Below are positions 32,248-55,191 of a stretch of DNA of 64,000 nucleotides, in pieces. The notes below the pieces were generated by a model. The model was not told the origin of the DNA. It did not search any database and worked only from the letters and a program-made list of their open reading frames with translations. Position numbers and translations under genes: made by a program. Origin of the DNA: Desulfobacterales bacterium (GTDB taxonomy: Bacteria > Desulfobacterota > Desulfobacteria > Desulfobacterales > SURF-7); contig JBGSLR010000097.1 in NCBI GenBank assembly GCA_041740615.1, forward strand, positions 29,363 to 93,362, written 5' to 3'. The first letter of the stretch is position 1. Each line of letters begins with the position of its first letter.

Positions 32248-33966
32248 TCAACTCGCTTTGGGAAGCGTCGTTTCATACGACCATTCGCCCCAGACTTTTT
32301 CGACAATTTTCATCAACAGCGGCGTGATGATTTCGTCCGCCATCTTTCCGTACAGCAGATCAAGATGGTTGGCGCCCTCGATGACGAAATCGATCATCTG
32401 ACTCTTTTCCGAAGTGATCCGGACTTTTTTCAGATCGCTCGGGGAGGAAAGGTGGTACACTTTTTTCGTATGGTGGGGGTAGTACTGACTGTAGCGCAGG
32501 TTTTTCAACGATGCGAGATGGTCTTTGGTTCCCCAGAAATGGAAAACGGGGATGTCCTCCGGGAACCAGGCAAGGGAGTCCGAATAGTTCAGGCGGCTGT
32601 CGTCCATTCTTTTGAATCCCTTGCCGTCATAGATGGCTTTCAGGCATTGAAAGCCAAGGCCCAGGGGTATGGATTGGGTAGCGGTTTTCAGATATCGCTC
32701 GACGAAATATTTATCGTTTCTATGATTGTCGGGGGTAATCAGAAAATTCAGTTCTCCGATATTGTGATTGGAGAGAAACCGAATGATCTGCTTGAGCATG
32801 GGCAGTTCCGTGAGAACCTTGGAGATTTCCTGCACGGGCACCTGTTGGAAGCGGAAGATGCGGGACAGGTGATTCAGCCAGAGGGCCGTGGGGAAGAAGA
32901 TATGAGATTTCTTTTCGAAAAATTTCGGGGATCCCAGGGAAACGATGCCTTGGATCATCTTCAAGTAGTTCTCGGCTTCCGACAGGGGGGGAAGGATCTG
33001 GTTGAGGATTTCCTTCTGATCCTTGTCAAAGGTCCCGATTCCATCAAGATGGCGGCGCAGGGACCAGTTCAGCACCATATTCTCGGAAACCAGCCCGCCC
33101 ATGCTGTGACCGACCAGGATCGTGGGTTTGCCGTAACTTCGGGTATGCAGAAACCGGACGACCGTCGCCAGGTCGAAATCGATCAGGGTATCGACGGTGT
33201 ACAGGGGATCGAAGCGGCCCTCATTCACGCCGACGCCCCGGGGATCGAAAAGATATACCCAGTATCCCCTGTCGGCCAGGTCCTTGGACAGGGAATAGCG
33301 GTTGTTGATGTTGAAACAGTTGCTGTTGTTGGCAAAGCCCGGCACCAGAATCACGGCCGGATGATTGTCGCCGGCCGTGACCGCTTCCATGCTCACCAGG
33401 CGGCGGAAGGTGATTTCCTTGCCCTCATCGGTAAAGTCCCGGTAATAAACGGTTTCGTAGTCTCCGCGGCCGTTACGGATGGCTTCTTCGATTTTGCTTT
33501 CGAAATAGATCGGCACCGCATCCGTCCGCAAGGCCTCCTTCAGAATTCGGCGGCGGCGCGCGACATTCAGGATCGTGGGGATTTGCTTTTTGGGAATGTT
33601 GAAGCGTTTCAAGGACAGGAACGACAGATCGCTTTCAGAAAGAAGGATGACGTTTTCGGTCAGACGCAGCCTGCCCTTTTCCAGCTCATCGACGATCACC
33701 AGCTTGATATCATCCCGCTGAATCCTCATTCCGGTTGCATTCAGAAACATGTGATACAATGCCAGGGCCAGTTTGCCCACGGCATCGGTCCTGATTTCTT
33801 CCTGGCTGACGATCAGTTCCTTTGAAACCGGCAGCCCCATGTTGATTTGACCCTTATAGAATTTACTATAGGCATTGTAACTGGAATTGATCAACAGCGT
33901 CGGTATGTCGTTTACAACACAACGGGTAAATGAATTACGCACTTCATTCAATTTTTTGAAAATCAT
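32248..33966 (-). CDS. Alpha/beta hydrolase (lipase/esterase) with an N-terminal extra domain
   Basis: ILVPGF oxyanion region; GHSMGG nucleophile; GTKDHL Asp; NHLDL His. Confidence 0.82.
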   Translation of the reverse strand: MIFKKLNEVRNSFTRCVVNDIPTLLINSSYNAYSKFYKGQINMGLPVSKELIVSQEEIRTDAVGKLALALYHMFLNATGMRIQRDDIKLVIVDELEKGRLRLTENVILLSESDLSFLSLKRFNIPKKQIPTILNVARRRRILKEALRTDAVPIYFESKIEEAIRNGRGDYETVYYRDFTDEGKEITFRRLVSMEAVTAGDNHPAVILVPGFANNSNCFNINNRYSLSKDLADRGYWVYLFDPRGVGVNEGRFDPLYTVDTLIDFDLATVVRFLHTRSYGKPTILVGHSMGGLVSENMVLNWSLRRHLDGIGTFDKDQKEILNQILPPLSEAENYLKMIQGIVSLGSPKFFEKKSHIFFPTALWLNHLSRIFRFQQVPVQEISKVLTELPMLKQIIRFLSNHNIGELNFLITPDNHRNDKYFVERYLKTATQSIPLGLGFQCLKAIYDGKGFKRMDDSRLNYSDSLAWFPEDIPVFHFWGTKDHLASLKNLRYSQYYPHHTKKVYHLSSPSDLKKVRITSEKSQMIDFVIEGANHLDLLYGKMADEIITPLLMKIVEKVWGEWSYETTLPKAS

Positions 33967-36023
33967 CCCTTCTGTAACTCCTTGACTGCAAGTTCTTTTA
34001 CTCTCTCAATATCCTCATCGCTAAAAACACCTTCCACTCCCGAGATGGCGGCGAGTTTCATTCCGTGTTTCAGCCCCAGACGGTAGATTTCACGCACTTT
34101 GTCCCATTGGGGAGAAGAGCCGACGGTGTATGTCTCGAATCTTCCTTCCAGGGCCAGGATGATGGTCTCGGCCAGGCCGGCGTAGGCCACGTGGGGAGGA
34201 AGTCCAATGTCTTTCATTTCCACTGCTTCTCCGGGAAGAAGGATCTCACCGCTTCGGATCACCAGTACATCGGGTCTTTTGGCGGCTATCTTTTTTGTGA
34301 ACACCATGGGCCTTGTGATATCCGTGATCACACAGCCCGGCTTGACCTGCATGATGTCCAGCACGCGGCCGGCGCCGGAGCTCGCGGCGACGATGACGTC
34401 CATGTCTCCCAGATACGTGTCCGCCCGCGTGGAAACATGGAGCTTCACGTTGGGGGCTTCTTCCATGATGGATTCCTGCAGGGCCAACAGCTTGGCGATA
34501 TTCCGACCCACCAGATAGACTTCTTCAAAGGCACGCGCCAGCAGCCGAGAGCAGATGGCGCCAACCGGCCCCGTGGCTCCGATTACCATGGTTTTGGCGC
34601 TGATGATTTTCTTGCCTTTTTTCAACTTCGCAAGACCCATGCGGCGCACCGCTTCGGCCGCCGCCCAAAGGGCCGCGGAAGCGACATAACTGTTCCCGGT
34701 GGTGAGGGGAAGTGCGGCGTGCTTGGCCACTTCCAGGCTGGAGTCCTTCAATTCCCGGGGCATCATGCTGATTCCCATGATCTGCGCGCCCAGCTTTTTG
34801 GCGATAACGGCGGCCTGCAGGATGCGCTTTTTCGTAAAATCCGGGTGATGGGCCTGCATCTGATCAGGGGTTTCGCCGATGCCGATTAACCATCCCTCCG
34901 CCTCTACGCCGGTCTCGGATTTGATGCCCGTCACTTTCGAGTAAACGAACGGCGGCGAATACGCCATGGCTTTTTCCACCATTCCCATCACACCAGGGGT
35001 CATATCGGCAAGAACTTCGATGGGCTTTATTTTTTTCAGGAATTCCTGGTTCAGCGGATGCACCAGGTAGGCAAAGCGGTTGACGCGCCTGGGTTGACCG
35101 GAAGGGTAGATGATTCGCGGCTCCATGTTCATTTCCGTTATGATTTCAAGGAGATCGTCTCTGCCCCGCTGGTCCTTGGGAATATTCAACGCGGCGATCA
35201 GCAGCGCTTCCAGGACACAAACCCCGATCACTTCCTTGATGAGCGCCGGGGTGGTGTCGATGATGACATCGACGCCCTTGCTTTTCAAAAACTCCACCCG
35301 GTCGTCATAAGCGGTTGAGGTGATGATGGTTTTCCCGACCAGGTCGTCATCGTTCAGTAAGTTCAGATATTTATAAAAATTGCTATGGGGTACCACAAGG
35401 ATCTGGGCTTTTTGGGCCTCCTGGCGCAGGATATACTCATTGATGGAGCGTACCGGTTTGGATTCCGACAGAAATTGCCGTCCGGGGATCCATTTCAGCG
35501 CGGGGCGTATTTTACCGGCATAGAGTTGGAACTCGTCCAGGGAGCTGATGAGTCTGGGCAGGGCGTTTTCGATCAGCGGGTCGGCAAAGGCCATGTTGTC
35601 GGTGTATTCGGACATGACTCGGGCGATATTGAAGCTCGACATACCGGAAAACAAGAGCACCCTGGCATTGTTGAAGTAATTGTTGCCGAATTTGAACTGG
35701 GTGTGACGAAGTGACCATTCATGGCCCACCACGCGAAGGGTTTTGCCGATCGTGACGGGTGTTTCCAGGGTTTTCCCCAGCCGGATGAGTTTTTCGGTTT
35801 CCGGGTCCTGTTTGGCTTTCCGGCCAACACTGTAAGGGAACTTGATGCTTCCCAGACCGATGGCGTCGGCTTTCTTGTTCCATTGCAGCAGCAGATCCGA
35901 GGCTTGCTCAAAATCTCCGTCCGTTCCGAAACGGCGGATACAAAACTTTTGATTCATGAATCGGGTCTCAAATTCGTAATCGTCTCGACTTGGTCCGAGA
36001 CTGATATCAACGATCTGTTTCAA
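33963..36023 (-). CDS. Acyl-ACP-reductase-like two-domain protein, catalytic Cys replaced by Gly
   Basis: Paralogue of 36035..38098; TTGNSY, GATGPVG, AYAGLAETI. Confidence 0.75.
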   Translation of the reverse strand: MKQIVDISLGPSRDDYEFETRFMNQKFCIRRFGTDGDFEQASDLLLQWNKKADAIGLGSIKFPYSVGRKAKQDPETEKLIRLGKTLETPVTIGKTLRVVGHEWSLRHTQFKFGNNYFNNARVLLFSGMSSFNIARVMSEYTDNMAFADPLIENALPRLISSLDEFQLYAGKIRPALKWIPGRQFLSESKPVRSINEYILRQEAQKAQILVVPHSNFYKYLNLLNDDDLVGKTIITSTAYDDRVEFLKSKGVDVIIDTTPALIKEVIGVCVLEALLIAALNIPKDQRGRDDLLEIITEMNMEPRIIYPSGQPRRVNRFAYLVHPLNQEFLKKIKPIEVLADMTPGVMGMVEKAMAYSPPFVYSKVTGIKSETGVEAEGWLIGIGETPDQMQAHHPDFTKKRILQAAVIAKKLGAQIMGISMMPRELKDSSLEVAKHAALPLTTGNSYVASAALWAAAEAVRRMGLAKLKKGKKIISAKTMVIGATGPVGAICSRLLARAFEEVYLVGRNIAKLLALQESIMEEAPNVKLHVSTRADTYLGDMDVIVAASSGAGRVLDIMQVKPGCVITDITRPMVFTKKIAAKRPDVLVIRSGEILLPGEAVEMKDIGLPPHVAYAGLAETIILALEGRFETYTVGSSPQWDKVREIYRLGLKHGMKLAAISGVEGVFSDEDIERVKELAVKELQKG

Positions 36024-36034: not shown

Positions 36035-38098
36035 CTAGTTCAGCGCCGCTTTTCTGGCTTCCAGTGCAAGTTTTTTGACCCTGGCGATATCCTCATCGGT
36101 GAACACGCCGTTCACGCCGGAAATGGCAGCCAGTTTCATGCCGTGCTTCAGACCCATTTTGTAGATTTCCTTTACTTTTTCCCATTCGATATCCCGGCCG
36201 ATGGTGAACACCTCAAAGCGACCCTCCAGGGCCAGAACGATGGTTTCCGCGAGACAGGCATAGGCGACTTTATGGGGCAGACCGATGCTTTTCATCTCCG
36301 GATTGCCGGGCAATTCGATTTCACCGGATTCGATGACGAGAACATCCGGCCGTTTGGCGACGTCTTCCGGCGAAAGATCCAGGGGCCGGGCCACATCGGT
36401 GATAATGCATCCCGGTTTCACGCGGGTGATGTCCAGAACGGTTTTACCGGCTCCGGAGGTGGCCGTGACAATGACATCCATGTCCGCCAGAAATTTATCC
36501 GGCCGGGTGGTCACTTTTATCTTTACCTCCGGATTTTCTTGCAGGATGGATTCCTTCAGCGCCATGAGCTTGGCGGTGTTGCGGCCGACCATGAAGACCT
36601 CGTCGAAGGCCGTGGCAAGCAGCCGACAACATACCGAACCGATGGCTCCGGTGGCGCCCAGAACCATGGATTTCCCCATGATTTTTTTCCCTTTTTCAAT
36701 TTTGATCAGGCCCATGCGGCGGACGGCGTCCGCCGCCGCCCATAGCGCGCCGGACGCACTGTAGCTGTTGCCGGTGGTGATGGGGATGTCCGCTTTTTTG
36801 GCCACGGTTACGCCCGCGTCGCCCACGACCTTGGTGAAGGCGCCGAGGCCCATGATCTGCGCGCCCATGCGTTTGGCCATTCTGGCGGCTTGCAGTAAGC
36901 GCTTGTACGTGAATTCCGGGCTGTGCGCCAGCATTTGCTTGGGAGTGCCTCCGACGGTGATCAACCAGCCCTCGGTCTCGGCGCCCGTTGGAGATTTGAT
37001 GCCGGTTACCCGGGAGTAGACCCAGGGTGGCGCATAGGCGACCACTTTTTCAACGGTGTCCAGGAATACCGGCGGTGTGAAACTGGCCATGAAATCCACC
37101 GCTTTGTCCTTTTTCAAAAATTCCTTTGAAAGGGGATGGATCACAAACGCGAAGCGGTTGATGCGTTTGGGGTTCCCCGAAGGATAGACGATGCGCGGGT
37201 CCATTTTTTGCGCGCTGATGATTTCCAGCAGGTCGTCCGACCTGACCTGGTCGCGGTTCCTTCCCATGGCGGCGATGATCAACGCTTCCAGCAGATTTGG
37301 GGGGACCACGCGTTCCAGAATTTTCGGTGTCGTATCGATGATGACATTCACCCCCCTTTCTTTCAGGAAGGAGACCCGGTCATCATCCGCGGTGGAGGTG
37401 ATGATGGTTTTGCCACCCAGTTCCTCAATGGAAGTGTTTTTCAGATAGTCGTAGAATTCGAAATGGGGCACCACAAGGATGTTGGCTTTCTGCATGGCCT
37501 TCCGCAGAATGTAATCATTCCACGATTGAATCGGCGCAACCGACCCGGTCAGTCGTTTGCTCGGCACCCATTGCAGGACTTCGTGGAATCCGTGGGCGTA
37601 GGACTCAAGATCCTTGAGGGAGTTGATGAATTTGGGAATGCCGTTTTCCAGGATCGGGTCGGCGAAAGAAAGGTTGTCGGTGAACTCGGACATCACCTTG
37701 GCGATGCGGTAGCTGGTCATGCCGGAAAGAAAAAGAACCCGGGCGTTGCTGAAGTAATTTCCAAATTTATACTCGATATAGCGCAGCGACCACTCGAAGG
37801 AAACGTCTCGCAGCTTGTCCCCCATGGTGACCGGGGTCTGGATTTGGGCCCCCAGCTCTCTCAGTTTGTTGCTGTTTTTTCTTGTCAGATAGCGGGGACC
37901 GATCCCATAGGGGCGTTTAATGCCCCCCAGGCCGATGGCGGCTGCCTCCTTATCCCATTTCAGCAGAAAGGCGGCGGCTTTTTCCATGTTTCCGTCGGTG
38001 CCCAATCGTTTGATGATGAAATTCTGGCCAAGGAATTCCGTCTCAAATTCATAATCTTTCTCGCTTGGTCCTAAACTGATGCTGACGACCTTTTTCAC
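36035..38098 (-). CDS. Acyl-ACP/CoA-reductase-like two-domain protein (aldehyde-forming type)
   Basis: C-terminal half matches cyanobacterial AAR motifs: APPWV, GLGAFT, ITTGNSY, GATGAIGS, AYACLAETI, HGMKLA. Confidence 0.78.
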   Translation of the reverse strand: MKKVVSISLGPSEKDYEFETEFLGQNFIIKRLGTDGNMEKAAAFLLKWDKEAAAIGLGGIKRPYGIGPRYLTRKNSNKLRELGAQIQTPVTMGDKLRDVSFEWSLRYIEYKFGNYFSNARVLFLSGMTSYRIAKVMSEFTDNLSFADPILENGIPKFINSLKDLESYAHGFHEVLQWVPSKRLTGSVAPIQSWNDYILRKAMQKANILVVPHFEFYDYLKNTSIEELGGKTIITSTADDDRVSFLKERGVNVIIDTTPKILERVVPPNLLEALIIAAMGRNRDQVRSDDLLEIISAQKMDPRIVYPSGNPKRINRFAFVIHPLSKEFLKKDKAVDFMASFTPPVFLDTVEKVVAYAPPWVYSRVTGIKSPTGAETEGWLITVGGTPKQMLAHSPEFTYKRLLQAARMAKRMGAQIMGLGAFTKVVGDAGVTVAKKADIPITTGNSYSASGALWAAADAVRRMGLIKIEKGKKIMGKSMVLGATGAIGSVCCRLLATAFDEVFMVGRNTAKLMALKESILQENPEVKIKVTTRPDKFLADMDVIVTATSGAGKTVLDITRVKPGCIITDVARPLDLSPEDVAKRPDVLVIESGEIELPGNPEMKSIGLPHKVAYACLAETIVLALEGRFEVFTIGRDIEWEKVKEIYKMGLKHGMKLAAISGVNGVFTDEDIARVKKLALEARKAALN

Positions 38099-38162: not shown

Positions 38163-38453
38163 TCATCCTGAATCATCCCGTCCATCTCCGTCGTTTCCGA
38201 TGGCGTTCACCGGACAGATATCCATGGCTTCCAGGCACCGTTCTTCCTCTTCCTCCGAGGAAGGTTGTTTGTATACGAATTCATACCCTTCCTCCAGATT
38301 CGAGCAAAAATTGTTCGATGCGATTTCCGCACATAGGGTGCATCCGATGCAGGTATCGTCGACGTAATATCTCCCCTGAGTGTTTTCCTTTATTTTTTTC
38401 GCTTTATTCGGCAACCCAATGTCCGTTTTCGACTTCGACGTAAGAGGCGACAC
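38163..38453 (-). CDS. Single-cluster ferredoxin
   Basis: YYVDDTCIGCTLC...CPVNAI. The start may be the TTG at 38414. Confidence 0.88.
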   Translation of the reverse strand: MSPLTSKSKTDIGLPNKAKKIKENTQGRYYVDDTCIGCTLCAEIASNNFCSNLEEGYEFVYKQPSSEEEEERCLEAMDICPVNAIGNDGDGRDDSG

Positions 38454-38754: not shown

Positions 38755-40416
38755 TCAGCGTGTCAGTTCCCGCATGATTTGAGCGACGTCCTGCAGCTGG
38801 GTGTCCTCTTCGATGACTTGCTGGTGAATACTGCAATAATCGGATCCCGGGATCGGTTGTTTGCGGCACGCTTTTCCGGTTTTTGTTTCGCCTTTGCAAC
38901 GCGCGGTGTCACCGCCGACCGATGGCGTTTTTTTCTGGCTTTTGGCTGCTTTGGCTTCCTGATACCGGTCGTGAAGAACCAGGGGTTCGTCGTAAATCTT
39001 TCCGGATTTCACCAAGTCCAGCAGAAAGTTGAATTCCTCTTCAAACCCCTCCAGCAACAATTCCGGATCCGGCATCAACTTTTCATCGGAAGAGATACCC
39101 ACCGTAACCTTCTCATCATAGCTCAGAATGCTGATCCCCAAACCGATTTTCCCGGAGCGGGGAACCCAGAACATGAGGTTGTTGATTTTCTTCCCGGCGA
39201 AATATAACGGTTGCCGTGGCCCGGGAACGTTGGTCATGACACCGGAAGCCTTGTTTCCGAAAAGCTGGGCGGCTTTGCGGGCAAGTGCGGGCGGCAGATA
39301 TCCGATGGCGCTCAGAAGACCGAAGTTAATATACGGGTCCGGTGATTTTTTCAGCTGGTCCATTCGCCGTTTCACCTCTTTGAGCCGCAAAACCGGATCT
39401 TCCAGATACACCGGCAGGGGTAGAAAGACCAGACTGAACTTGTTGCCCAGTTCGAATTCGGTCCCTGGTTTCCGGATATTCACCGGGATCGTGACGCGCA
39501 GGTCAAGCTCGTTGACCGGGGTTTTCCGTGTCTTCAAATACCGTCTCATGGCGCCGGTGACCGTGGCGACCAGCACATCATTCAGCGTGGCGGTGCTGAT
39601 GGCCTTGCCGACGGTTTTGATTTTATCCAGGGCCATCGGTTCCGTCCAGGCGACTTTTTTTCGCACGCCCAAGTTGCCTTTGAAGGCCGTGTTGGGATCC
39701 GAACTCATGATGGTGTGCTTGGAAAGGACGGAAGCGAAATCCGTAGGCAGACAGCTTGTGTTTTTGGCTAATTTTTTTAGATAATCCGTGTCCGTGACGG
39801 CTTTTTCGATTTCCTTGATCATTTTCTTGCTGAATTTTCGACCGGCGCCCGCGGTGTCTTTGACCCTGCGAATCACACTGTCGACCGAGAGAAACGACCC
39901 GATAGGTGATTTCACCGATTTCTTGCGCGGTTCGAGTTTGGGCCAGGGTGCTTTGGGGTCCGTATCGGCGGCCGATAACAAGACATGAATGAGTGCAATG
40001 CCGTCTCCAATACAGTGATGAATACGAAAAAAAAGCACGCACCCGTTTCCGTAATTTTCGATCAGATGAACCTGCCAGAGAGGTTTGTCCGGATCCAGTG
40101 GGCTGATCATCAGGTTGGCGATCATTTCCTGTAGATCGTTTTTGTCCCCCGGATCCGGTAAGGCAATTCGATGAAGATGAGATTTCAGGTCGTAATTCTT
40201 GTCCGTTTCCCAGAAGGGGAGCCCGATGCCCGACTTGGGGCGGATGATGTGCTTCTGGAATCGCGGGAAGGAAGCCAATCGGCTTTCAATCGTGGCGTAC
40301 AATCGGTTATAGTCGATCAGCGATTCAAACTCCATGAAAGCGGTGATCACCATCAGGTTGGTGGGATCATCCATACAGAGCCAAAAATTATCGGCATTGG
40401 TCATGCGCTCGGCCAT
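38755..40416 (-). CDS. Wax ester synthase/diacylglycerol acyltransferase (WS/DGAT) with a C-terminal C3H zinc finger
   Basis: PLWQVHLIE, HHCIGDG, TLNDV, PVNIR, LGNKF, TNVPGP, SILSY. Confidence 0.92.
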   Translation of the reverse strand: MAERMTNADNFWLCMDDPTNLMVITAFMEFESLIDYNRLYATIESRLASFPRFQKHIIRPKSGIGLPFWETDKNYDLKSHLHRIALPDPGDKNDLQEMIANLMISPLDPDKPLWQVHLIENYGNGCVLFFRIHHCIGDGIALIHVLLSAADTDPKAPWPKLEPRKKSVKSPIGSFLSVDSVIRRVKDTAGAGRKFSKKMIKEIEKAVTDTDYLKKLAKNTSCLPTDFASVLSKHTIMSSDPNTAFKGNLGVRKKVAWTEPMALDKIKTVGKAISTATLNDVLVATVTGAMRRYLKTRKTPVNELDLRVTIPVNIRKPGTEFELGNKFSLVFLPLPVYLEDPVLRLKEVKRRMDQLKKSPDPYINFGLLSAIGYLPPALARKAAQLFGNKASGVMTNVPGPRQPLYFAGKKINNLMFWVPRSGKIGLGISILSYDEKVTVGISSDEKLMPDPELLLEGFEEEFNFLLDLVKSGKIYDEPLVLHDRYQEAKAAKSQKKTPSVGGDTARCKGETKTGKACRKQPIPGSDYCSIHQQVIEEDTQLQDVAQIMRELTR

Positions 40417-44940: not shown

Positions 44941-44969
44941 AGCATAACGCAGCGCGTCATATTCGTCAA
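44941..44969 (-). promoter_or_regulatory. Sigma70 promoter with an embedded 17-bp operator
   Basis: Minus-strand TTGACG-17 bp-TATGCT; ATAACGCAGCGCGTCAT at 44944-44960. Confidence 0.7.
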
Positions 44970-45794: not shown

Positions 45795-47636
45795 ATGTTG
45801 CCAGAATATTTTGAGTTTTCGCTCCCGACAAAAGTGGTTTACGGGATCGGCATCCTTGCGAATATCGGCGATGTCGTGGCCCCTTTCGGTAGCCGTAAGG
45901 CCATCCTGGTGACCGATGCCATCCTGGTCAAGGCCGGGCCGGTGGAGAAAGTCAAAAGCGGTTTTCAAAAATCGGATATCGAAATCGTCTGCACTTTCGA
46001 TGACGTTCCGCCGAATTCCACCATTGAGACCGTCGAAAAATGCGCTGCCCTGGCGAAAAAAAACAGCTGTGATTTGATCATCGCCGTGGGGGGCGGCAGT
46101 GTCATCGATACGGCAAAGGTGGCCAATATTCTGCTGGTGAAGGGGGGCAAGCTGGAAGATCACATGGGGGCATATCTTCTGGGAAGCCGGGAGCGGCTGC
46201 TGCCGGCGATTTTTATTCCGACCACGGCCGGGACCGGTTCCGAAGTGACCAAGGTAGCGGTGATCGCCGACCCGCAAAACGACGTCAAACTTCCCTTTGC
46301 CGAGGAGCAATTCCTGCCCCAATTGGCTGTTCTGGACCCGGAAGTCACCACTTCCATGCCGGGCAAATTGACGGCCGGAACCGGGATGGATGCCTTGACC
46401 CATGCGATTGAAGCCTATGTGGACAAGGAGTGGTCACCGGCCACCGATGCATTGGCCCTGCATGCCGTCAAGCTGATCTCCGGCAATATCCTGCAGGCCT
46501 GCGCCAAACCGGATGATATGGAGGCCCGTGGGGCCATGCTGGTGGGGAGCTTTCTGGCCGGCGTGGCATTCTCCCATTCCATGGTGGGAATGGTTCATGG
46601 TATTTCCCATGCCCTCGGCGGCGTTTACCACATTCCCCATGGCTTGGCCAATGCGTTGGTCCTGCCGGAAGTGATGGCCTACAATCTGGAAGCGCAATAC
46701 GACCGGTTCGCCGACATCGCAGCGGCCATGGGAATCTCTTTCCCGCAGATCGTCCATCAGGGAAAGAGCATCCTGTCCTCCAGCCGTTTCGATGTTCTGT
46801 CCAGGATCGTGAGCCGTTCCGAGGTGGATTCTCTCAAAGAGCTGGTCAACACCGGTTCGTTCCGCGCCCGGGGACTGGCGGCAAGAGCGCTGGGAAATTT
46901 CGAGTTTATCGATCAATGGGTCAGAAAACAGGCGGCACTTGCGGCCATCGAAAAAATTCGCACCCTGAATCGCCAACTGGCGTATCTGACGAAAATGCCC
47001 CTCTCCCTGAAAGAGGCCGGTATCAAAGATAATTTGGCGAAACTGGAACAGACGGCCGCAACGGCCATGGAAGACGGTTCCATGTTGTACAATCCGGTCG
47101 AGCCGGAAAAGAACGCCGTCATGGAAATCATTCAAAAGGTGTATTCCTCCAAGGCCACTCCGCTGCCGGTTTCCCGCGAGGATCTTCGTGTCGAAAGCGC
47201 CGCCCGAAGAGCAAAGGAGCCGGAACGGGTATTCACGGACGCGGTCATGTTGTATGACGTGTTGATCGGTTTTTATGAAGAACTGAAGGACAGCCCCGAT
47301 ATCGGCCCGGCGCTCGCCAAAACCAGCCTTTGTATACAGTTCCGTTATCAGAAACCGACCGCGGTCATCACCATCGACGCCACCGGCAAAACCATCCGTA
47401 TCGTCAAAGGGGCTTTCGACGGCAAACCGGAAGTGACCATGACCATGAACGCCGATTTTGCGCACAAGTTCTGGCACGGCAAGGCCAATTTGGTCAGCGC
47501 CCTGACCCGCCGGCAGGTTTCGGCCAAGGGCAACGTGCCCAAGACAATCAAATTACTACCAATTCTAAAGCCGGCCTACGCTCTCTATCCGAAGTTCTTG
47601 AAGAAAAAAGGGTTGGGAAGTCTGACTATTTTATAA
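45795..47636 (+). CDS. Iron-containing alcohol dehydrogenase fused to an SCP2 lipid-binding domain
   Basis: GGGSVIDTAK, PTTAGTGSE, DALTHAIE, HGISH, HGLAN; C-terminal PEVTMTMNADFAHKFWHGKANLVSAL..VSAKG. Confidence 0.88.
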   Translation: MLPEYFEFSLPTKVVYGIGILANIGDVVAPFGSRKAILVTDAILVKAGPVEKVKSGFQKSDIEIVCTFDDVPPNSTIETVEKCAALAKKNSCDLIIAVGGGSVIDTAKVANILLVKGGKLEDHMGAYLLGSRERLLPAIFIPTTAGTGSEVTKVAVIADPQNDVKLPFAEEQFLPQLAVLDPEVTTSMPGKLTAGTGMDALTHAIEAYVDKEWSPATDALALHAVKLISGNILQACAKPDDMEARGAMLVGSFLAGVAFSHSMVGMVHGISHALGGVYHIPHGLANALVLPEVMAYNLEAQYDRFADIAAAMGISFPQIVHQGKSILSSSRFDVLSRIVSRSEVDSLKELVNTGSFRARGLAARALGNFEFIDQWVRKQAALAAIEKIRTLNRQLAYLTKMPLSLKEAGIKDNLAKLEQTAATAMEDGSMLYNPVEPEKNAVMEIIQKVYSSKATPLPVSREDLRVESAARRAKEPERVFTDAVMLYDVLIGFYEELKDSPDIGPALAKTSLCIQFRYQKPTAVITIDATGKTIRIVKGAFDGKPEVTMTMNADFAHKFWHGKANLVSALTRRQVSAKGNVPKTIKLLPILKPAYALYPKFLKKKGLGSLTIL

Positions 47637-47814: not shown

Positions 47815-48906
47815 ATGCATCCTGTAGTTATATTGGTTGCCGCGGCGTTTCTTGGCCTTTTGTCGGGCTGCAATGACGGCGGTAAATCCGGCGAAAACAA
47901 AACAACTCCCGTCGCATTGAAGATTCACGCGTGGAACGGCTATGTGCTGGAATACCGGGAAGCCTTTCAAAAGTACGCGAAAACCGCATTCGGTTTGGAT
48001 GTTGAGATTGTATACACGTCGACCTCGGGCTTTGATTCCAATGTGGAAAACATCAAAGGTGGAACACGGGCCCATCTGATTTCCCCGGCCAACGACCTGC
48101 TGGCGCCGCTTGTAAGGGAAGGGCTGCTGACGGTGCTCGATACGGCCAGGTTGACCAATTTCAAGCAAATCAATCCGGTAGTAGTCGAGACGAAATGCAC
48201 GGAGGTGAACGGCAAACCATATGCCGTGCCGTTCAATTTCGGCCCATACTCTATCGCATACAACAGGGATAAAGTACCGGAGCCCACCTCATACAAGGTA
48301 TTATGGGACAGCAAGTATGCGAAACGCGTTTCGATCCCGGGCGAATATGACACCATCAATGTCTATATGACGGCGCTCATGCTGGGTATGCATAAAAATG
48401 ATCTGTTCGACCTGAACGATGAACAGCTTGCGGCGGTGGAGACAAAGCTGCGGGAACTCTGCCGCAATCAGGTCGGCGAGTATTGGCGGGACAATCTCGA
48501 CCCCGAGAGCCGCGATCGGGTTGATGTGGGAATGGACTGGGGTATCGGTGTGAAACAGATCAATCAGAAATTTCATGGAAACTGGGGACTCGCCATACCG
48601 GAGGAAGGGGCCACGGGATGGATCGACACTTGGGCGATTACGATCAATGCAATGGACCCCAAAGTGCTGGAGGCTGCATATGCCTGGATCGATTTCATGA
48701 TCAGCGCCGAGCGCCAGGCCCAAATGGCCAGGATTACTTCCTATGGGCCGATCAACCCGTATTCGGGAAGATATCTCACCGCGGAAGAAAAGAAGTTGTA
48801 TTATTTGAATTACCCGAATTTCATGAAAAATCTGATATTATGGCAACCCCTGAAGCCCGATGTCCTGAAAAAGTACCAGGAAGCATGGAGGCGCGCAAGG
48901 CAATGA
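47815..48906 (+). CDS. PotD/PotF-like periplasmic solute-binding lipoprotein
   Basis: Lipobox LLSGC; WNGYV; YAVPF; IAYNRDKV; PEEGATGWIDTWAI. Confidence 0.85.
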   Translation: MHPVVILVAAAFLGLLSGCNDGGKSGENKTTPVALKIHAWNGYVLEYREAFQKYAKTAFGLDVEIVYTSTSGFDSNVENIKGGTRAHLISPANDLLAPLVREGLLTVLDTARLTNFKQINPVVVETKCTEVNGKPYAVPFNFGPYSIAYNRDKVPEPTSYKVLWDSKYAKRVSIPGEYDTINVYMTALMLGMHKNDLFDLNDEQLAAVETKLRELCRNQVGEYWRDNLDPESRDRVDVGMDWGIGVKQINQKFHGNWGLAIPEEGATGWIDTWAITINAMDPKVLEAAYAWIDFMISAERQAQMARITSYGPINPYSGRYLTAEEKKLYYLNYPNFMKNLILWQPLKPDVLKKYQEAWRRARQ

Positions 48907-51164
48907 AGTCAAATCCCACGAGTATCTATGGCAGGATGCTGACCTTGTCCATCGGTTCCGTACTCGTGGCGGCGATCGTTTCCACCGCATTATATATTTT
49001 GATCACCAGACAGGCGTTGAGATCCCATATCGATTCGAAAATTGACTACAATCTCGCCAAGCTCGGCCAGATTCTCTCCGTGCCGCTGATCAACCAGGAT
49101 TACGTTCAGATGGTCAATATCATCGATCAGGAATCAAAAGGCGGTGATCTGCAATTCATCTGGCTAACGGACAAGAGCGGGCGAGTGATTGTCGCAAACG
49201 ACGAGAACCAGCTGATGGCGCCCATCGCAGCCGAGTACCGAGCCATGGACGGCTTCCGCCGATGGAAACTCGACAATGACTGGTTCTTGTGTGCCATTCC
49301 GGATTACGGCATCATGAATTCCATTCTGCCATTGGTGATTCCCTGGAGCCTATTGGTCCTTCTCCTTTCAGTTGCCGCATCCATATACTTTTTCATCCGG
49401 TTGATCAAAAACATCACCGTACCGCTTTCCAATGCCATCCAGGCTTCCTCTGGAATGGCCGGTGGAAATTTCCGCATCGAATTGACCGATTCGGGGATTA
49501 CGGAGATCGATACGTTGAGCCAATCCCTGACATACACCGGTCGAAAGCTTTTGGAGCTTACCCAGCGTCTCAAGACCGAGAGGGATGAACTGGAGCGTAA
49601 CCGCGAAGAAATTCGGAGCCTTTCTGAATTCAGGGAAAGCATTATCGACAACGCCACCGTATGGTTGAACGTTCTTGACCAGAATGCGCGCGTGATTGTC
49701 TGGAATAAGGCAGCGGAGGATATCAGCGGTTACAGCCGGAAAGAAGTACTCGGGAATACGGATATATGGGGTTTGTTGTATCCGGACGACGAGTACCGGG
49801 AGCGGATTTTTACAAGGGCCTCGAACATTATCCGCAAAGGGGATGTCGCCGAGGACTTGGCCACGATGATACGGACCAAAACCGGGGAGCGGAAATACAT
49901 TTCATGGTATTCGAAGCACCTGAAATCGGCCGGTGGTGAAACGGTCGGGTCCATCGCCATGGGGATCGATATCACCGAGAAGATGCGTATTGAAGAGTCC
50001 TTGCGCCAGGCGCAGAAGATGGAGACGGTCGGGACTCTTGCCGGAGGCATCGCCCATGATTTCAACAACGTCCTCATGGGAATCACCGGTGCCGTTTCCC
50101 TGGTTGAGTTTGAGCTGGACCGTCAGGAAGAGCTGTCGAAGGAATCGATCAACAGATACGTGACAACCATACGGAATGCCGCCGAACGAGCGAGTGATAT
50201 CGTCAAGCACCTATTGACCATTTCCAGACGCCAGGAACTTGAGCTTGCCGTCATCGATTTAAACATGGCCATGGGCCACATCTTGAAAATCTGTCGAAGC
50301 AGTTTTGACAAAAGCATCAAAATCAGTGTCGCCGATATTTCCTCACCCGCGACCGTTATGGCGGATCTCACCCAGATCGAGCAAGTTCTGTTAAACCTTT
50401 GCATCAACGCCTCCCACGCCATGACCATCATGCGGCCGGAAGGCGAAAAGTGGGGCGGTACGCTGACGATATCCATAGAAGACGTTTGGGAGTCACAAGC
50501 ATCCTTGGTTTTGGAACTGCCGGCCGGAAACTACTGGAAGCTGTCTGTGGGAGATAGCGGGGTGGGAATGTCCAAGGATATCATTCAACATATTTTTGAC
50601 CCGTTCTTTACCACAAAGGAGAAAGGCGTCGGTACGGGTCTCGGGCTGTCCATGACATACAGCATCGTCAGGGCGCACAACGGTTTCATCACCGTGTATT
50701 CGGAGCCCGGCCAGGGAAGCGTATTCAGTATATATATGCCGATGATCGAAGCGGATGTCGCCAAAGATACGGAAATTCGATCATATGAGATCGAAACCGG
50801 CAGCGGACTTATTCTGGTTGTGGACGATGAACAGACCAATCGGGAAATTGTCAAGATGATGCTGGAAGGTTGCGGTTACGAGGTCGTCACGGCGGATAAC
50901 GGCGAAGAGGGGGTGCGGGCTTATGCAGCGCTTTCGGGAAGCGTAAGGGCCGTCATCCTTGATATCGTCATGCCCAAGATGTCCGGGGAAGAAGCCTGCG
51001 CCCGCATACTGGAAACGGATCCCCACGCCAGGGTGATCGTATCATCCGGATTCCGCGACGACAGCAGGGTCAAAAAAGCACTGGATCGCGGCGCGAAACT
51101 CTTCGTGCCCAAACCCTATTCGTTGCAAGGTCTGTCATCCGCAATCAAATCCGTCCTGGAATAA
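48903..51164 (+). CDS. Hybrid sensor histidine kinase (TM-HAMP-PAS-HisKA-HATPase-REC)
   Basis: GIAHDFNN, NLCINA, DSGVGM, FFTTK, GTGLGLS, LVVDDE, DIVMP; ATGA coupling to the SBP gene. Confidence 0.92.
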   Translation: MKSNPTSIYGRMLTLSIGSVLVAAIVSTALYILITRQALRSHIDSKIDYNLAKLGQILSVPLINQDYVQMVNIIDQESKGGDLQFIWLTDKSGRVIVANDENQLMAPIAAEYRAMDGFRRWKLDNDWFLCAIPDYGIMNSILPLVIPWSLLVLLLSVAASIYFFIRLIKNITVPLSNAIQASSGMAGGNFRIELTDSGITEIDTLSQSLTYTGRKLLELTQRLKTERDELERNREEIRSLSEFRESIIDNATVWLNVLDQNARVIVWNKAAEDISGYSRKEVLGNTDIWGLLYPDDEYRERIFTRASNIIRKGDVAEDLATMIRTKTGERKYISWYSKHLKSAGGETVGSIAMGIDITEKMRIEESLRQAQKMETVGTLAGGIAHDFNNVLMGITGAVSLVEFELDRQEELSKESINRYVTTIRNAAERASDIVKHLLTISRRQELELAVIDLNMAMGHILKICRSSFDKSIKISVADISSPATVMADLTQIEQVLLNLCINASHAMTIMRPEGEKWGGTLTISIEDVWESQASLVLELPAGNYWKLSVGDSGVGMSKDIIQHIFDPFFTTKEKGVGTGLGLSMTYSIVRAHNGFITVYSEPGQGSVFSIYMPMIEADVAKDTEIRSYEIETGSGLILVVDDEQTNREIVKMMLEGCGYEVVTADNGEEGVRAYAALSGSVRAVILDIVMPKMSGEEACARILETDPHARVIVSSGFRDDSRVKKALDRGAKLFVPKPYSLQGLSSAIKSVLE

Positions 51165-51191: not shown

Positions 51192-52886
51192 TCATAACCC
51201 CTTGCGGACAATCGCCACCAGCAGCCAGATGCCCATGACGGCTGCGGCCAGGAAACCGATGATGCCGATGAAGGAAATGCCGTAGAAGAGCGGCGGGGTG
51301 GCGGAAATGACGATCAGGGCCGAGCCGATCAAGAGGGCGGCGATGATGATGGAAAAGGCCAGGCGGTTGCTGATTTTATGGTAGGTTGCCAGGGTTGTTT
51401 CCATGCCTTTGTTCTCGACATTGATGCTGATCTTTTCGTTTTTGATCATGCGGGTGATGTCGAGAATGTCTTTGGGCACTTTCTGGAGGAACTGCCGGAG
51501 ATCACCGGCCAGGTTGACCAGGTCGAAGGCGATGCGTTCCGGGTAAAAACGGGCGATTTTGACTCGGGCTATGAACGGCGCGGCCTGGGTGACCATATCG
51601 AATTTCGGGTCCAGGGTTTTGGCCACGCCTTCCACGGTGGCGAGGGCCTTGATCATCAAAAAAATATCCGGCGGCACCCGCAGACGATGGTGGGACACCA
51701 ATTGCAGCAGCTGCTGCAACAGTCGGCCGATCTCGATGTCTTTCAGGGGCTTGAATAGGTATCTGCCGATGAAATCGGCCAGCTCCCGTTCAAGGGCCCG
51801 GATGTCCGGCTGGTCTTCCCAGTCCGTTATCCGCAGAATGACCTGGGCGGCCTCGGCGGCGTTTCGATGAATGATGCTGTCCAGCAGATCGACGAAATTT
51901 TCCCGGGTTTGGCGATCCACCGTCCCGACCATGCCGAAATCCACCAGGCAGATGATATTACCGGGCAGGACGAAGATATTGCCGGGGTGGGGATCGGCGT
52001 GGAAGAAGCCGTTGTGAAAAACCTGTTTCAGGGTGAGATTGGCTCCCCGGGCGGTGATCAGGCGGGTGTCGAGCCCGGCCGCTTTCAGGGTTGCCGTATC
52101 GGACACTTTTATGCCGTTGACGTACTCCATGGTGATGACCTGGGAGGTGGTCATGTCACGGTAAACTTTTGGAACGTATACGGTAAGGTCTTCCGCGAAT
52201 TGCCTTGAAAAACGTTCCATGCTGGTGGCTTCCAGGTTGTAGTCGACTTCCTTCCCGAGGGTGCGGGCGAATTCCTCGACAATCTCCGTCGGGCGGTGCA
52301 GGGAAAATTCCTGGATGTTCCGTTCCATGAGACTGGCGATATACAGCATGATTTCAAGGTCGACTTCGATGGTTTTACGAATGTCGGGGCGCTGGATCTT
52401 GACCACCACCTCGCGTCCATCCTTCATGCGCGCCTGGTGAACCTGACCGATGGACGCCGAAGCCAGCGGGGTTTCTTCAAAGTGTTCGAAGAGTTCCTCC
52501 GGCAGGGCGCCCAATTCCTGTTTGATGGTGTTTCTCACTTGATCGAATGGAAACGCCGGGACTTTGTCCTGTAATTTCGACAATTCGGTAATGAATTCGA
52601 TGGGAACCAGGTCCGGGCGGGTGGAGGCGATCTGGCCGAATTTGATGAAGGTCGGCCCGAGTTCCTCAAAAACAATGCGGATGCGTTCGGCCCGTGTCAT
52701 GATTTCCACGCGCTCTCTTCTTTTGCGTGTGATCATCTGCAGGCCCAGCTCGATATACTGGTCGATATGGAGTCGGTTCAATAAATCGTCAAAACCATAT
52801 TTCAGGAAAATGGTCAGGATCTGACGGTACCGGTTCAAATGGCGATAGGTTCGCCCGACGGCGGTGACTTTTTGAATACTCAGCAT
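51192..52886 (-). CDS. ABC1/UbiB (AarF) atypical kinase with C-terminal TMs
   Basis: LGPTFIKFGQ, ASASIGQVH, VVKIQRP, HADPHPGN, DFGM. Confidence 0.92.
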   Translation of the reverse strand: MLSIQKVTAVGRTYRHLNRYRQILTIFLKYGFDDLLNRLHIDQYIELGLQMITRKRRERVEIMTRAERIRIVFEELGPTFIKFGQIASTRPDLVPIEFITELSKLQDKVPAFPFDQVRNTIKQELGALPEELFEHFEETPLASASIGQVHQARMKDGREVVVKIQRPDIRKTIEVDLEIMLYIASLMERNIQEFSLHRPTEIVEEFARTLGKEVDYNLEATSMERFSRQFAEDLTVYVPKVYRDMTTSQVITMEYVNGIKVSDTATLKAAGLDTRLITARGANLTLKQVFHNGFFHADPHPGNIFVLPGNIICLVDFGMVGTVDRQTRENFVDLLDSIIHRNAAEAAQVILRITDWEDQPDIRALERELADFIGRYLFKPLKDIEIGRLLQQLLQLVSHHRLRVPPDIFLMIKALATVEGVAKTLDPKFDMVTQAAPFIARVKIARFYPERIAFDLVNLAGDLRQFLQKVPKDILDITRMIKNEKISINVENKGMETTLATYHKISNRLAFSIIIAALLIGSALIVISATPPLFYGISFIGIIGFLAAAVMGIWLLVAIVRKGL

Positions 52887-53349: not shown

Positions 53350-55191
53350 CTAACCGCCGAAAGCGGCATCGATCATTTCGACGGCGGCCCCGTCGGTTTT
53401 TATGATGGCCGCCAGTCGGCCCATGGTGACCGGCAGAATGGAATGGATGAAAAAGCGGGCCGTCTTGATCTGGCCGTCATAAAACGCGGCATCCTTGTTT
53501 TTTTCCGCTTTGGCGCGGATGGTTTCCGGATCGGCTGCGCCGGCCAGTTTTTCGAGTTTCGGCGCGGCCACGGCCGCTCGCCAGAGCAGCATCCAGGCGA
53601 TGGACAAATCGCCAAGGGATTCCAGGTAGGGGTGGGCAAAGGCGTATGCATACTTGATTTTGTCCGACATGGCGGTTTTTCCGAGATGCATGGCCGCTTC
53701 GCTCACGCGATTGAACACCTGGTCGACGTTTTCCGCCAGGTCGGCGATCATGGGGATTTCTTTGGCTGCTACAATCTGTTTGCGGATTTCTCCCAGGTAG
53801 TCGAGGAAGGTTTTCCCCTTGTTCATTCCCAGCTTGCGACCCAGAAGATCCATTGCCTGGATACCGTTGGTGCCTTCATAGATCATGAAAATGCGACAGT
53901 CGCGCATGAGCTGTTCCACCGGATATTCCTTGATGTATCCATACCCGCCATAGATCTGGACGGCGTGACTGGTGACCTCCAGGGCTTTGTCGGTGATGTA
54001 GCCCTTTATGATCGGGGTCAGAACGTCAATCAGTCCCACTTGTTTGGCGCGTTCCTCCTCGGTCGTCGCCGTGGCGGCCAGATCCCAGCATCGTCCCGTA
54101 TAGTACGTCAGGCTGCGCATGCCTTCCACATAAGCTTTCATGATCATCAACTGCCGGCGGACATCCGGATGATGGATGATGGATACCGGGCCGGCTTTGG
54201 GATTGGTCAGGTCGCGGCTTTGGATACGCTCACGGGCGTAATTGAGGGCGTGAATGTAGGCGGTCGTGGAAACCGCGAAACCTTCCAGGCCGACGAATTG
54301 ACGCGCTTCGTTCATCATGGTGAACATGGCGCTCATCCCTTTGTTTTCCTCTCCCAGCAGGGTGCCGATACACTTCCCCTTGCCTCCGAGTGTCAGGGAG
54401 CAGGTTGCGTTGCCGTGAAGCCCCATTTTTTCCTCGATGCCGGTGCACACCGCATCGTTGAATTCTCCCAGACTGCCGTCCGCGTTGACCCGGTATTTGG
54501 GAACCAGAAACAGGGATATCCCCTTGGTGCCTTCCGGCGCCCCTTCGATGCGCGCCAGCACCGGATGGATGATGTTTTCCACCATGTCTTGTTCCCCGCC
54601 GGAAATGAATATTTTGGAACCGGTGATGGAGTAAGTGCCGTCCGGGTTTTTCTGGGCTGAAGTCGTCAGCGCGCCGACATCGGATCCGGCTTCGGGTTCG
54701 GTCAGCAGCATGGTGCCAGACCATTTCCCCGTATACATGTTTTTCAGGTAGATTTTTTTCTGTTCTTCGGTGCCGTAAGTTTCGACCAGCTTGGCCGCCC
54801 CGTGGGAAAGGCTGTGATACAGCATGAAAGCGGCGTTGGCTCCGTGGAAGTATTCGTTGGCCGCCAATGAAACCAGCTTGGGCATTCCCTGTCCGCCCCA
54901 TTTGGGATCGTCGGTCATGGCCAGCCATTCCCCTTCATTATAGAGTTTGTTCACTTTGTGAAAGCTCTCCGGCACCGAAACCTTTCCGTTTTCAAAGCGG
55001 CACCCTTCATCCCCCGGCTGTTGGGTGGGGAGTATCTCCTTGATTGCCAGGTTCCTCGCTTCGGTCACGATCAGGTCGATGGTCTTTTTATCGAACTCGG
55101 CGAATTTTTCCTTTTTTGCCAGTTCCGCGGCTTCCATTTGTTCATGAAGAACAAAATCAACGTCTCTTCGATCTGCAATTAACTGCGCCAT
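53350..55191 (-). CDS. Acyl-CoA dehydrogenase (FadE5-like ~600-aa type)
   Basis: TEPEAGSDVG, GSKIFIS, IEEKMGLHG, YGGYGY, IYEGTNGIQ. Confidence 0.93.
   Translation of the reverse strand: MAQLIADRRDVDFVLHEQMEAAELAKKEKFAEFDKKTIDLIVTEARNLAIKEILPTQQPGDEGCRFENGKVSVPESFHKVNKLYNEGEWLAMTDDPKWGGQGMPKLVSLAANEYFHGANAAFMLYHSLSHGAAKLVETYGTEEQKKIYLKNMYTGKWSGTMLLTEPEAGSDVGALTTSAQKNPDGTYSITGSKIFISGGEQDMVENIIHPVLARIEGAPEGTKGISLFLVPKYRVNADGSLGEFNDAVCTGIEEKMGLHGNATCSLTLGGKGKCIGTLLGEENKGMSAMFTMMNEARQFVGLEGFAVSTTAYIHALNYARERIQSRDLTNPKAGPVSIIHHPDVRRQLMIMKAYVEGMRSLTYYTGRCWDLAATATTEEERAKQVGLIDVLTPIIKGYITDKALEVTSHAVQIYGGYGYIKEYPVEQLMRDCRIFMIYEGTNGIQAMDLLGRKLGMNKGKTFLDYLGEIRKQIVAAKEIPMIADLAENVDQVFNRVSEAAMHLGKTAMSDKIKYAYAFAHPYLESLGDLSIAWMLLWRAAVAAPKLEKLAGAADPETIRAKAEKNKDAAFYDGQIKTARFFIHSILPVTMGRLAAIIKTDGAAVEMIDAAFGG

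Follow-up and report, generated by a model that had tools for sequence, protein, structure and literature searches.

A conserved gene cluster of Desulfobacterales combining WS/DGAT, AAR-like reductases and PhaR_N/phasin-type proteins: a probable neutral-lipid synthesis and coat system

Does a group of lipid genes in the genome of a Desulfobacterales bacterium encode the synthesis of wax esters, and do the proteins of polyhydroxyalkanoate (PHA) granule type that lie among these genes belong to the same system? The genes are located in a window of 64,000 nucleotides (G000:C97:29363-93362; the window is the whole stretch of DNA analyzed, and its numbering is used below) of a 5.59-Mb host genome that consists of 101 contigs and is 94.9% complete. 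A first-pass annotation of this DNA had described an anaerobic wax-ester or lipid-body system that reuses PHA-granule machinery. The gene map, based on an open reading frame (ORF) listing and on Pfam and NCBIfam scans of the window proteins, confirmed the gene families named there, namely a hydrolase, a pair of proteins like acyl-ACP (acyl carrier protein) reductase (AAR), a ferredoxin, WS/DGAT, two PhaR_N proteins, two ABC1 kinases, an iron-dependent alcohol dehydrogenase fused to an SCP2 domain (Fe-ADH-SCP2) and an acyl-CoA dehydrogenase. The list was essentially right, with the gene of a FFLEELY-motif protein (45025-45783), a solute-binding protein gene and a hybrid histidine kinase gene omitted. 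As a whole, the earlier observation was partly confirmed and its interpretation partly supported: the cluster is probably a conserved Desulfobacterales system for the synthesis and coating of a neutral lipid, most plausibly wax ester and possibly triacylglycerol (TAG) too.

The conservation of the gene group was evaluated by a homology search with AARL687, the first of the two AAR-like proteins (36035-38098, minus strand). The search yielded 80 related loci, nearly all of them in genomes of the Desulfobacterales type. The carriers include Desulfosarcina, Desulfobacula, Desulfamplus magnetovallimortis, Desulfatirhabdium and the Olavius Delta-3 and Delta-4 symbionts, and the nearest named relatives are metagenome-assembled genomes of Desulfosudis oleivorans (92% and 82% identity over AARL687), which places the host in the Desulfosudaceae. 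Genes were counted as reciprocal-best ORF matches in the 33 loci with full 10-kb flanks. WS/DGAT (38755-40416, minus strand) and the PhaR_N protein PhaRN209 (42565-43194, plus strand) were each found in 29 of the 33 loci, the phasin-like protein Phasin224 (41641-42315, minus strand) and the second AAR-like protein, AARL686 (33963-36023, minus strand), in 28, and the ferredoxin (38163-38453, minus strand) in 27, as well as in 64 of all 80 loci. They are followed by Fe-ADH-SCP2 (45795-47636, plus strand; 25/33, with 66-78% identity), the FFLEELY protein (45025-45783, plus strand; 24/33), and the Ser hydrolase ABH572 (32248-33966, minus strand) and the second PhaR_N protein, PhaRN175 (40854-41381, minus strand), with 22/33 each. 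AARL687, WS/DGAT, the alcohol dehydrogenase (ADH), ferredoxin, PhaRN209 and the phasin occur together in 20 of the 33 loci, 12 of which add FFLEELY, the hydrolase and AARL686. The gene order is rearranged among lineages, WS/DGAT and the ADH being shifted relative to the AARL genes, and the set nevertheless remains together. Since this grouping recurs in dozens of related genomes, it is far beyond chance, and the conserved core consists of Fe-ADH-SCP2, FFLEELY, PhaRN209, the phasin-like protein, PhaRN175, WS/DGAT, ferredoxin, AARL687, AARL686 and the Ser hydrolase. The synteny survey that had been proposed for the earlier claim thus showed that these genes travel together across Desulfobacterales.

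Other neighbors did not belong to the core. The acyl-CoA dehydrogenase (53350-55191, minus strand), which had been taken as a part of the system, was kept in one of the 33 loci, as were the solute-binding protein (47815-48906, plus strand) and the hybrid histidine kinase (48618-51164, plus strand), and all three were rejected as cluster members. The two ABC1 kinases had also been counted in. ABC1_573, a divergent ABC1/UbiB-like atypical kinase (43214-44935, minus strand; PF03109 77.7 bits, above the cut-off; TIGR01982 113.6 bits against 487.55), is seldom kept (3/33), whereas the UbiB-like ABC1_564 (51192-52886, minus strand; PF03109 287 bits; TIGR01982, UbiB, 471.5 bits against a cut-off of 487.55) is loosely linked, with 10 of the 33 loci and 24 of the 80 by tblastn, and in relatives often lies just downstream of the hydrolase gene. 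Outside the order, one genome (G325) carries Fe-ADH-SCP2, ferredoxin, a single AARL, a hydrolase-like gene, WS/DGAT and an ABC1 gene in one collinear compact block (locus L088), and in another (G326) AARL adjoins WS/DGAT.

Co-occurrence was estimated in an even selection of 151 genomes of the order, with a threshold of E <= 1e-30 for AARL. AARL was found in 28 and WS_DGAT_cat in 26 of the genomes; 24 contained both and 121 neither, and the carriers of both families are spread over many GTDB families. The FFLEELY protein was present in 23 genomes, 19 of them also with AARL.

The acyltransferase at the end of the proposed route is, by its sequence, a full member of the WS/DGAT family (TIGR02946 380.6 bits against a cut-off of 309.95; WS_DGAT_cat 120 and WS_DGAT_C 145.8 bits). 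Its HHxxxDG motif is intact as HHCIGDG at residues 133-139, and H133, H134, D138 and G139 show conservation of 95% or more among 49 sequences. The C-terminal ~50 residues (window 38755-38920) exceed the family model; C507, T511, C517, C528 and H531 are at least 95% conserved in the 49 orthologues, and this tail looks like a Cys3-His metal-binding knuckle. A second WS/DGAT paralogue of 512 aa with 48% identity lies elsewhere in the genome (G000:C38:207664-209202; locus L005:9665-11203). No tblastn match to the other cluster proteins was found beside it, and the four neighboring ORFs scanned encode a periplasmic binding protein, a methyltransferase, a permease and a protein without a match.

The two AAR-like proteins are 59% identical in an alignment (58% by tblastn), and the C-terminal half of each matches AAR and the N-terminal domain of PigE (PigE-N). 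A profile of 43 AARL family members was compared with PDB over residues ~309-680; it matched PigE-N (4ppm) with E 9.5e-52 and AAR (6jzu) with E 6e-28. The AlphaFold (AF2) model of AARL687 has a pLDDT of 88.4, and a Foldseek search with it retrieved AAR and the carmabin TAD with E from 1e-16 to 4e-20; for the AAR structures 6jzu and 6jzq, E was about 1e-19 to 1e-20 (4e-20 for the AAR match) and TMt 0.70-0.75. AARL687 contains the Rossmann NAD(P) motif GATGAIG, and Cys615 in its ACLAE motif sits at the position of AAR Cys294; 34 of the 43 family members have this Cys. By homology, the C-domain of AARL687 (~309-680) is an NAD(P)-binding thioester reductase of the AAR/PigE-N/TAD type. AARL686 has AGLAE instead, with Gly at the position of the AAR nucleophile Cys. 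A regex count in the 80 related loci, many of which are incomplete, found both a Cys and a Gly copy in 47, a Cys copy only in 24, a Gly copy only in three, neither in five and two Cys copies in one, and in the first 20 loci, whose positions were inspected, the Cys copy is upstream of the Gly copy. Since the Cys and Gly copies recur together, AARL686 is probably a conserved non-catalytic partner. The description of both proteins as acyl-ACP-reductase-like stands as far as homology to AAR and PigE-N goes; it does not extend to their length, which is twice that of AAR, or to the catalytic Cys, which one of them lacks.

The additional length is due to an N-terminal domain (residues 1-310 of AARL687) that has no Pfam match and is of no known family. 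It folds confidently (pLDDT 88.8), and its Foldseek neighbors are weak, with a two-lobe alpha/beta likeness (TM 0.31-0.48). Comparison of the N- and C-domain profiles gave a weak collinear alignment (E 0.0027, probability 11%), which is suggestive but weak, so that a degenerate duplicate of the C-domain is a guess. No longer fusion proteins were found. The two-domain family, annotated as "predicted amino acid dehydrogenase", comprises about 3,460 cluster representatives. The N-domain (window 37169-38098) also has stand-alone homologues of ~300 aa (P0342, P0344, P0351 and P0397) in the anaerobic Firmicutes Fuchsiella, Halanaerobiales, Desulfotomaculum and Heliomicrobium. They are annotated as "quinate 5-dehydrogenase" yet contain no Pfam domain, and this name is for that reason probably wrong.

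Directly upstream of AARL687 is the gene of a small single-cluster ferredoxin (CxxCxxC...CP; Fer4_13 67.7 bits) with invariant C35, C38, C41 and C80 in 25 sequences. A predicted complex of AARL687 with this ferredoxin received a score of 0.00, which speaks neither for nor against binding. No match to aldehyde decarbonylase (aldehyde-deformylating oxygenase, PF11266) was found in the genome, and an alkane route was ruled out on this ground.

For the reduction of a fatty aldehyde, Fe-ADH-SCP2 is the candidate in the cluster. It combines a group-III alcohol dehydrogenase with an SCP2 lipid-binding domain, all domains being above their cut-offs (Fe-ADH 168.2, ADH_Fe_C 173.2 and SCP2 30.1 bits), and its nearest solved enzymes are short-chain alcohol dehydrogenases. 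The FFLEELY gene ends 11 bp upstream of it; the encoded protein scores 169.4 bits against a cut-off of 55 with NF047641, and its atlas matches are 100% DUF8198. The first-pass annotation had contrasted this combination with the characterized wax producers, mostly aerobes with reductases of the FAR/Acr1 type. The contrast applies to the order: scoring of the top seven candidates in each genome revealed a FAR-type two-domain reductase (NF005539) in 2 of the 151, so that the AAR-like protein and the ADH are the only conserved candidate source of alcohol. It does not apply to the host genome, which itself has a FAR-like two-domain reductase (G000:C49:44685-46709; locus L087:6686-8710). That protein has 674 aa with NAD_binding_4 and adh_short domains and scores 654 bits with NF005539; its architecture is that of the Marinobacter and Mycobacterium FAR-type acyl-CoA reductases, and its gene adjoins AraC and RhuM genes. 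No FAR-type reductase was found among the seven best candidates scored in the same-genus genome G111. Given this absence and its rarity in the order, the host gene may be a recent acquisition.

The aldehyde or alcohol could also feed another product, for example an alkyl-glycerol ether or other membrane or signal lipid, with WS/DGAT as an overflow only. Some sulfate reducers make alkylglycerol ether lipids by a pathway that is incompletely known, no role has been assigned to the AARL N-domain, the ferredoxin or FFLEELY, and some AARL genes occur without WS/DGAT. However, WS/DGAT is present in 24 of the 28 AARL genomes, the phasin-type coat genes suit droplets rather than membranes, and no other family was found among the conserved cluster genes scanned, in a scan that was not specifically directed at alkyl-dihydroxyacetone phosphate synthase or plasmalogen-type enzymes. 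We consider such a product very unlikely.

The direction of the route is a separate question, and the hydrolase bears on it. ABH572 (572 aa, alpha/beta fold) has an N-terminal extension of ~200 aa, the Abhydrolase_1/Hydrolase_4 match covers residues 200-300, and the triad Ser288 (in GHSMGG), Asp482 and His534 is conserved across an alignment of 46 sequences; no close or informative solved structure was found for it. Its gene overlaps the stop of AARL686 by 4 bp. Such translational coupling to the AARL pair is what a catabolic pathway could look like, in which wax esters from outside or from stores are cleaved by the hydrolase, the long-chain alcohol is oxidized by Fe-ADH-SCP2, and AARL, working as an aldehyde dehydrogenase that acylates CoA or ACP, leads to beta-oxidation. 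Both Fe-ADHs and thioester reductases can in principle run in reverse, an acyl-CoA dehydrogenase gene is nearby in this genome, and the host genus, judged from record titles, includes degraders of hydrocarbons and fatty acids. Nevertheless, the best-conserved partner is the condensing enzyme WS/DGAT, the acyl-CoA dehydrogenase does not stay with the cluster, and genes of coat and regulator type suit storage. Also, no transporter was found among the conserved genes, signal peptides not having been looked for, and AAR, PigE-N and TAD act reductively, homology to them being the link here. This catabolic reading is therefore distinctly unlikely.

The putative coat protein, Phasin224, is a Lys/Asp-rich protein of 224 aa with five to six tandem 22-residue repeats (residues 41-172), some of which have Pro first. 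The autocorrelation at lag 22 is 1.71, compared with a shuffle maximum of 0.23. Its C-terminus is of the phasin type: PF05597 was matched with 32.9 bits against a cut-off of 28.8 (residues 130-219), and TIGR01837 with 36 bits, under the cut-off of 94.7. An apolipoprotein-like repeat protein and a phasin had been described as two separate genes; both matches fall in this one ORF. Membership in the family Apolipoprotein A1/A4/E (PF01442) was rejected (23.1 bits against a cut-off of 90), only the 22-residue period being shared. These features make Phasin224 a candidate droplet coat. Divergent from its gene is that of PhaRN209, which matches PHB_acc_N with 71 bits (cut-off 25) and has a weak phasin-like C-terminus; its start is likely the ATG at about 42622. 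PhaRN175 matches PHB_acc_N with 60.6 bits (cut-off 25) and has a coiled-coil, phasin-like tail. With TIGR01848, PhaRN209 and PhaRN175 score 71 and 48 bits, respectively, against a cut-off of 109.45. A minus-strand ORF of 258 aa (42436-43212) without a family match was discarded as the shadow of PhaRN209.

Repeat finding and pattern search revealed a 17-bp palindrome, ATRAYGC-N3-GCRTYAT, in two promoter regions of the cluster. Two copies (42388-42404 and 42414-42430) lie in the divergent promoter region between Phasin224 and PhaRN209 and overlap a promoter-like TTGACA-17-CATATT on the minus strand. The third (44944-44960), between ABC1_573 and the FFLEELY-Fe-ADH-SCP2 operon, overlaps a promoter-like TTGACG-17-TATGCT, also on the minus strand. 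The looser pattern with one mismatch gave seven matches in the window, six of which are these three sites counted on both strands, compared with a shuffle mean of 1.61; seven was reached in none of 100 shuffles. In the whole genome, the strict palindrome has four copies, three of them in the two cluster promoters. In 85 related loci, the 13-bp core was counted 137 times, compared with about 19 in shuffles; the majority of copies are in the interval between the phasin and WS/DGAT genes (31), between PhaRN209 and the phasin (16) or elsewhere beside the phasin gene. Close to phasin or PhaR_N genes, at a distance of up to 400 bp, there are 0.49 copies per kb, compared with 0.028 per kb elsewhere. 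The core is present in each of the 30 full-flank loci that have a PhaR_N gene and in none of the three that lack one; likewise, no copy was found in the compact block of G325, which lacks PhaR_N. This distribution suggests that the PhaR_N proteins may bind the palindrome.

These data are consistent with the following scheme, in which the gene content is observed and the biochemical roles are what we infer from it. AARL687, probably in a heteromeric complex with AARL686, the Cys-to-Gly paralogue, would reduce long-chain acyl-ACP or acyl-CoA to a fatty aldehyde. The scheme assigns no step to the ferredoxin, whose gene is predicted to be co-transcribed with the AARL genes, or to the AARL N-domain, FFLEELY and the ABC1 kinases. 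Fe-ADH-SCP2 would reduce the aldehyde to a fatty alcohol, and WS/DGAT would join the alcohol, or diacylglycerol, with acyl-CoA to give wax ester, TAG or both. Phasin224 would coat the resulting droplets. PhaR is a repressor released by the granule surface, and by analogy the PhaR_N proteins, with a DNA-binding head and a phasin-like tail, may repress the coat and FFLEELY-ADH promoters at the palindrome until they are titrated by the droplet surface. ABH572 may mobilize or remodel the ester. The "complete route" and the "mobilizing lipase" proposed earlier would correspond to such a scheme, as predictions from the gene content.

A number of observations weigh against this scheme. AARL687 and AARL686 remain far below the cut-off of the AAR equivalog TIGR04058 (73.1 and 43.3 bits against 449.7), they contain the extra N-domain that is absent from AAR, and their relatives PigE-N and TAD feed aminotransferases and not wax synthesis. 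In four of the 151 order genomes AARL occurs without WS/DGAT, and in two WS/DGAT without AARL; moreover, related genomes are not independent, and the Fisher values for the association are thereby overstated. In three genomes of another family (distant loci L090-L092), AARL has no cluster partners nearby. The WS/DGAT enzymes may make TAG only, and the FAR-like enzyme of the host could by itself supply alcohols. In this window, neither WS/DGAT nor the ferredoxin-AARL operon has a copy of the palindrome upstream. A search for RNA runs that contain the locus found none. To these are added the PHA synthase genes of the host and of other carriers, with which the phasin and PhaR_N proteins could serve PHA granules in most hosts.

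The earlier statement that phaA, phaB and phaC are missing holds for the window, in which no match to PhaC_N or Thiolase_N was found (phaB was not specifically looked for). It does not hold for the genome: a whole-genome phaC search, set beforehand as a check that could refute the lipid-body reading, was positive for two PHA synthase loci. On contig C31, a class I phaC (PhaC_N 252 bits) is accompanied by genes for a DUF3141 protein and PhaR, and a class III phaC/phaE pair lies on contig C35; this organism therefore probably forms PHA granules as well. Of the 151 genomes of the order, 66 have a PhaC_N match, among them 20 of the 28 with AARL, so that PHA genes and the cluster coexist in most carriers. 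The cluster could then be a carbon-storage neighborhood, in which the PhaR_N and phasin proteins serve the PHA granules of a distant phaC and WS/DGAT and the reductases are mere neighbors, WS/DGAT making TAG or nothing notable. Besides the synthase genes, this is favored by the phasin C-terminus, which is above the PF05597 cut-off, and by the sites missing upstream of WS/DGAT and AARL. However, the phaC on C31 has its own adjoining PhaR, whose TIGR01848 score (97.7 bits) is the best of the three in the genome. Eight AARL-positive genomes were PhaC_N-negative, and five of them were searched again with TIGR01836. Three of these (G011, G079 and G148; 95-99% complete) carry the cluster and PhaR_N genes with no credible PhaC by either PhaC_N or TIGR01836, the TIGR01836 match in G079 falling in the hydrolase orthologue; in G089, a class III-like gene scored 188 bits, and in G123 the matches were weak only. 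All five contain PhaR_N genes, in four on the AARL contig and in G089 on other contigs. Furthermore, PhaRN209 and the phasin stay with WS/DGAT despite the rearrangements, the FFLEELY-Fe-ADH-SCP2 promoter shares the palindrome of the coat gene, and in relatives the interval between the phasin and WS/DGAT is the commonest position of the core. The separate PhaR of phaC, the retention of PhaR_N in carriers without phaC and the sites that connect the coat gene with the ADH operon and, in relatives, with WS/DGAT thus disfavor a PHA role of the cluster proteins, which we regard as unlikely.

The neutral-lipid system proposed here was compared with known systems. The wax-ester pathway scheme and the FAR/Acr1 enzymes are given in PMC3522743. 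With the route of Acinetobacter, Marinobacter and Mycobacterium, the cluster shares the end enzyme WS/DGAT with HHxxxDG and the logic from acyl-thioester through aldehyde and alcohol to ester. It differs in the reductase, where a two-domain AAR-like protein, accompanied by a Cys-less paralogue and a ferredoxin, takes the place of an Acr1/FAR-type enzyme of the SDR/FAR kind, in the separate Fe-ADH-SCP2 in the place of the aldehyde reductase, and in the hosts, which are anaerobic Desulfobacterales. With cyanobacterial AAR (TIGR04058; 6jzu), AARL687 shares the fold, the Rossmann motif and the Cys at the Cys294 position (the PDB entry title contains "AAR-C294S"). AAR, however, is a single domain of ~340 aa that occurs with an aldehyde-deformylating oxygenase, whereas the AARL proteins have 686-687 aa with an extra N-domain, 23% identity to AAR and a Cys-to-Gly partner, and the genome contains no such oxygenase. 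Closest to AARL by profile and fold are PigE-N and the carmabin TAD (9e4x), which, by family and entry names, work with or are fused to aminotransferases or modules of nonribosomal peptide synthetase type in pigment and natural-product pathways; no match to an aminotransferase was found among the window proteins examined.

With the PhaR/phasin control of PHA, the cluster shares the PHB_acc_N domain, the phasin-type C-terminus, a regulator gene divergent from the coat gene and palindromes over the promoter. In contrast to that system, its PhaR_N proteins are under the equivalog cut-off, are not located beside phaC, are linked to WS/DGAT and occur in genomes without a detectable phaC, and its coat protein has 22-mer repeats in the apolipoprotein style. 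The likeness of Phasin224 to exchangeable apolipoproteins and perilipins lies in the repeat architecture only, with tandem, amphipathic-looking 22-residue repeats, together with a small regulator gene beside the coat gene; for lipid-droplet coats, Rhodococcus TadA and MLDS/MLDSR are the comparison.

In the literature searched, which did not include subscription journals and supplements, no description was found, for Desulfobacterales, of wax esters, of clusters with WS/DGAT or of a PhaR-like regulation of neutral lipids. PMC11948995 mentions a Desulfobacteraceae WS/DGAT gene in passing, and a 2026 preprint likewise names Desulfobacterota among the carriers of WS/DGAT. Within this literature, the AAR-like type of reductase with its Cys/Gly pair, Fe-ADH-SCP2 in such a role, PhaR_N/phasin-type genes with their own putative operator tied to WS/DGAT, and the whole set in anaerobic sulfate-reducer lineages are undescribed. 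As producers of the wax esters in sediments and mats, other groups are usually named, such as Chloroflexi in the review PMC10150655. If wax esters are made by this cluster, a new source would have to be considered for wax-ester biomarkers, and these anaerobes would have a store of neutral lipid that may also serve as a redox sink. Desulfobacterales are among the main oxidizers of organic carbon in anoxic marine sediments, and their storage is usually discussed as PHA. The cluster would also be a natural example of the route from AAR through ADH to WS/DGAT, which to our knowledge has so far been built only by engineers, and would provide the first functional context for the two-domain "predicted amino acid dehydrogenase" family, for FFLEELY/DUF8198 and for PhaR_N proteins that are not linked to phaC.

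A more far-reaching version of the neutral-lipid reading can be formulated tentatively, although we think it rather doubtful. The cluster may encode a self-regulated lipid-droplet organelle of complete-oxidizing sulfate reducers of marine sediments and symbioses. There, a heteromeric reductase, composed of a catalytic and a pseudo-enzyme subunit that each have a tandem AAR-like fold and linked to a ferredoxin, would act with an SCP2-tethered ADH to convert excess acyl chains and reducing power to wax esters as an electron sink and carbon store. The phasin with 22-mer repeats would form the coat, and the PhaR_N proteins would act as surface-titrated repressors at ATRAYGC-N3-GCRTYAT. Their regulon may touch nitrogen fixation, since the one strict site outside the cluster is upstream of nifH. 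This fourth copy (G000:C96:122815-122831; locus L093:3316-3332) is located just upstream of nifH-PII-PII-nifD and downstream of a gene of a sigma-54 activator. It could link the control of storage lipid to nitrogen status, and it may be a matter of chance, with ~0.3 sites expected per genome by simple arithmetic.

Two further features were observed in the window. Directly downstream of the ABH572 gene is an ORF of 1716 aa (26510-31660), which was not among the proteins included in the synteny survey; it contains an amino-acid permease/SLC12 domain and a C-terminal AAA_16 region, an unusual fusion. A second lipid-looking group is located at 4961-17143 and encodes an FAD-dependent oxidoreductase, a B12-binding radical SAM enzyme, two AMP-binding enzymes and a 1021-aa fusion of MMPL and methyltransferase domains, and a further B12-binding radical SAM enzyme is encoded at 21426-22838.

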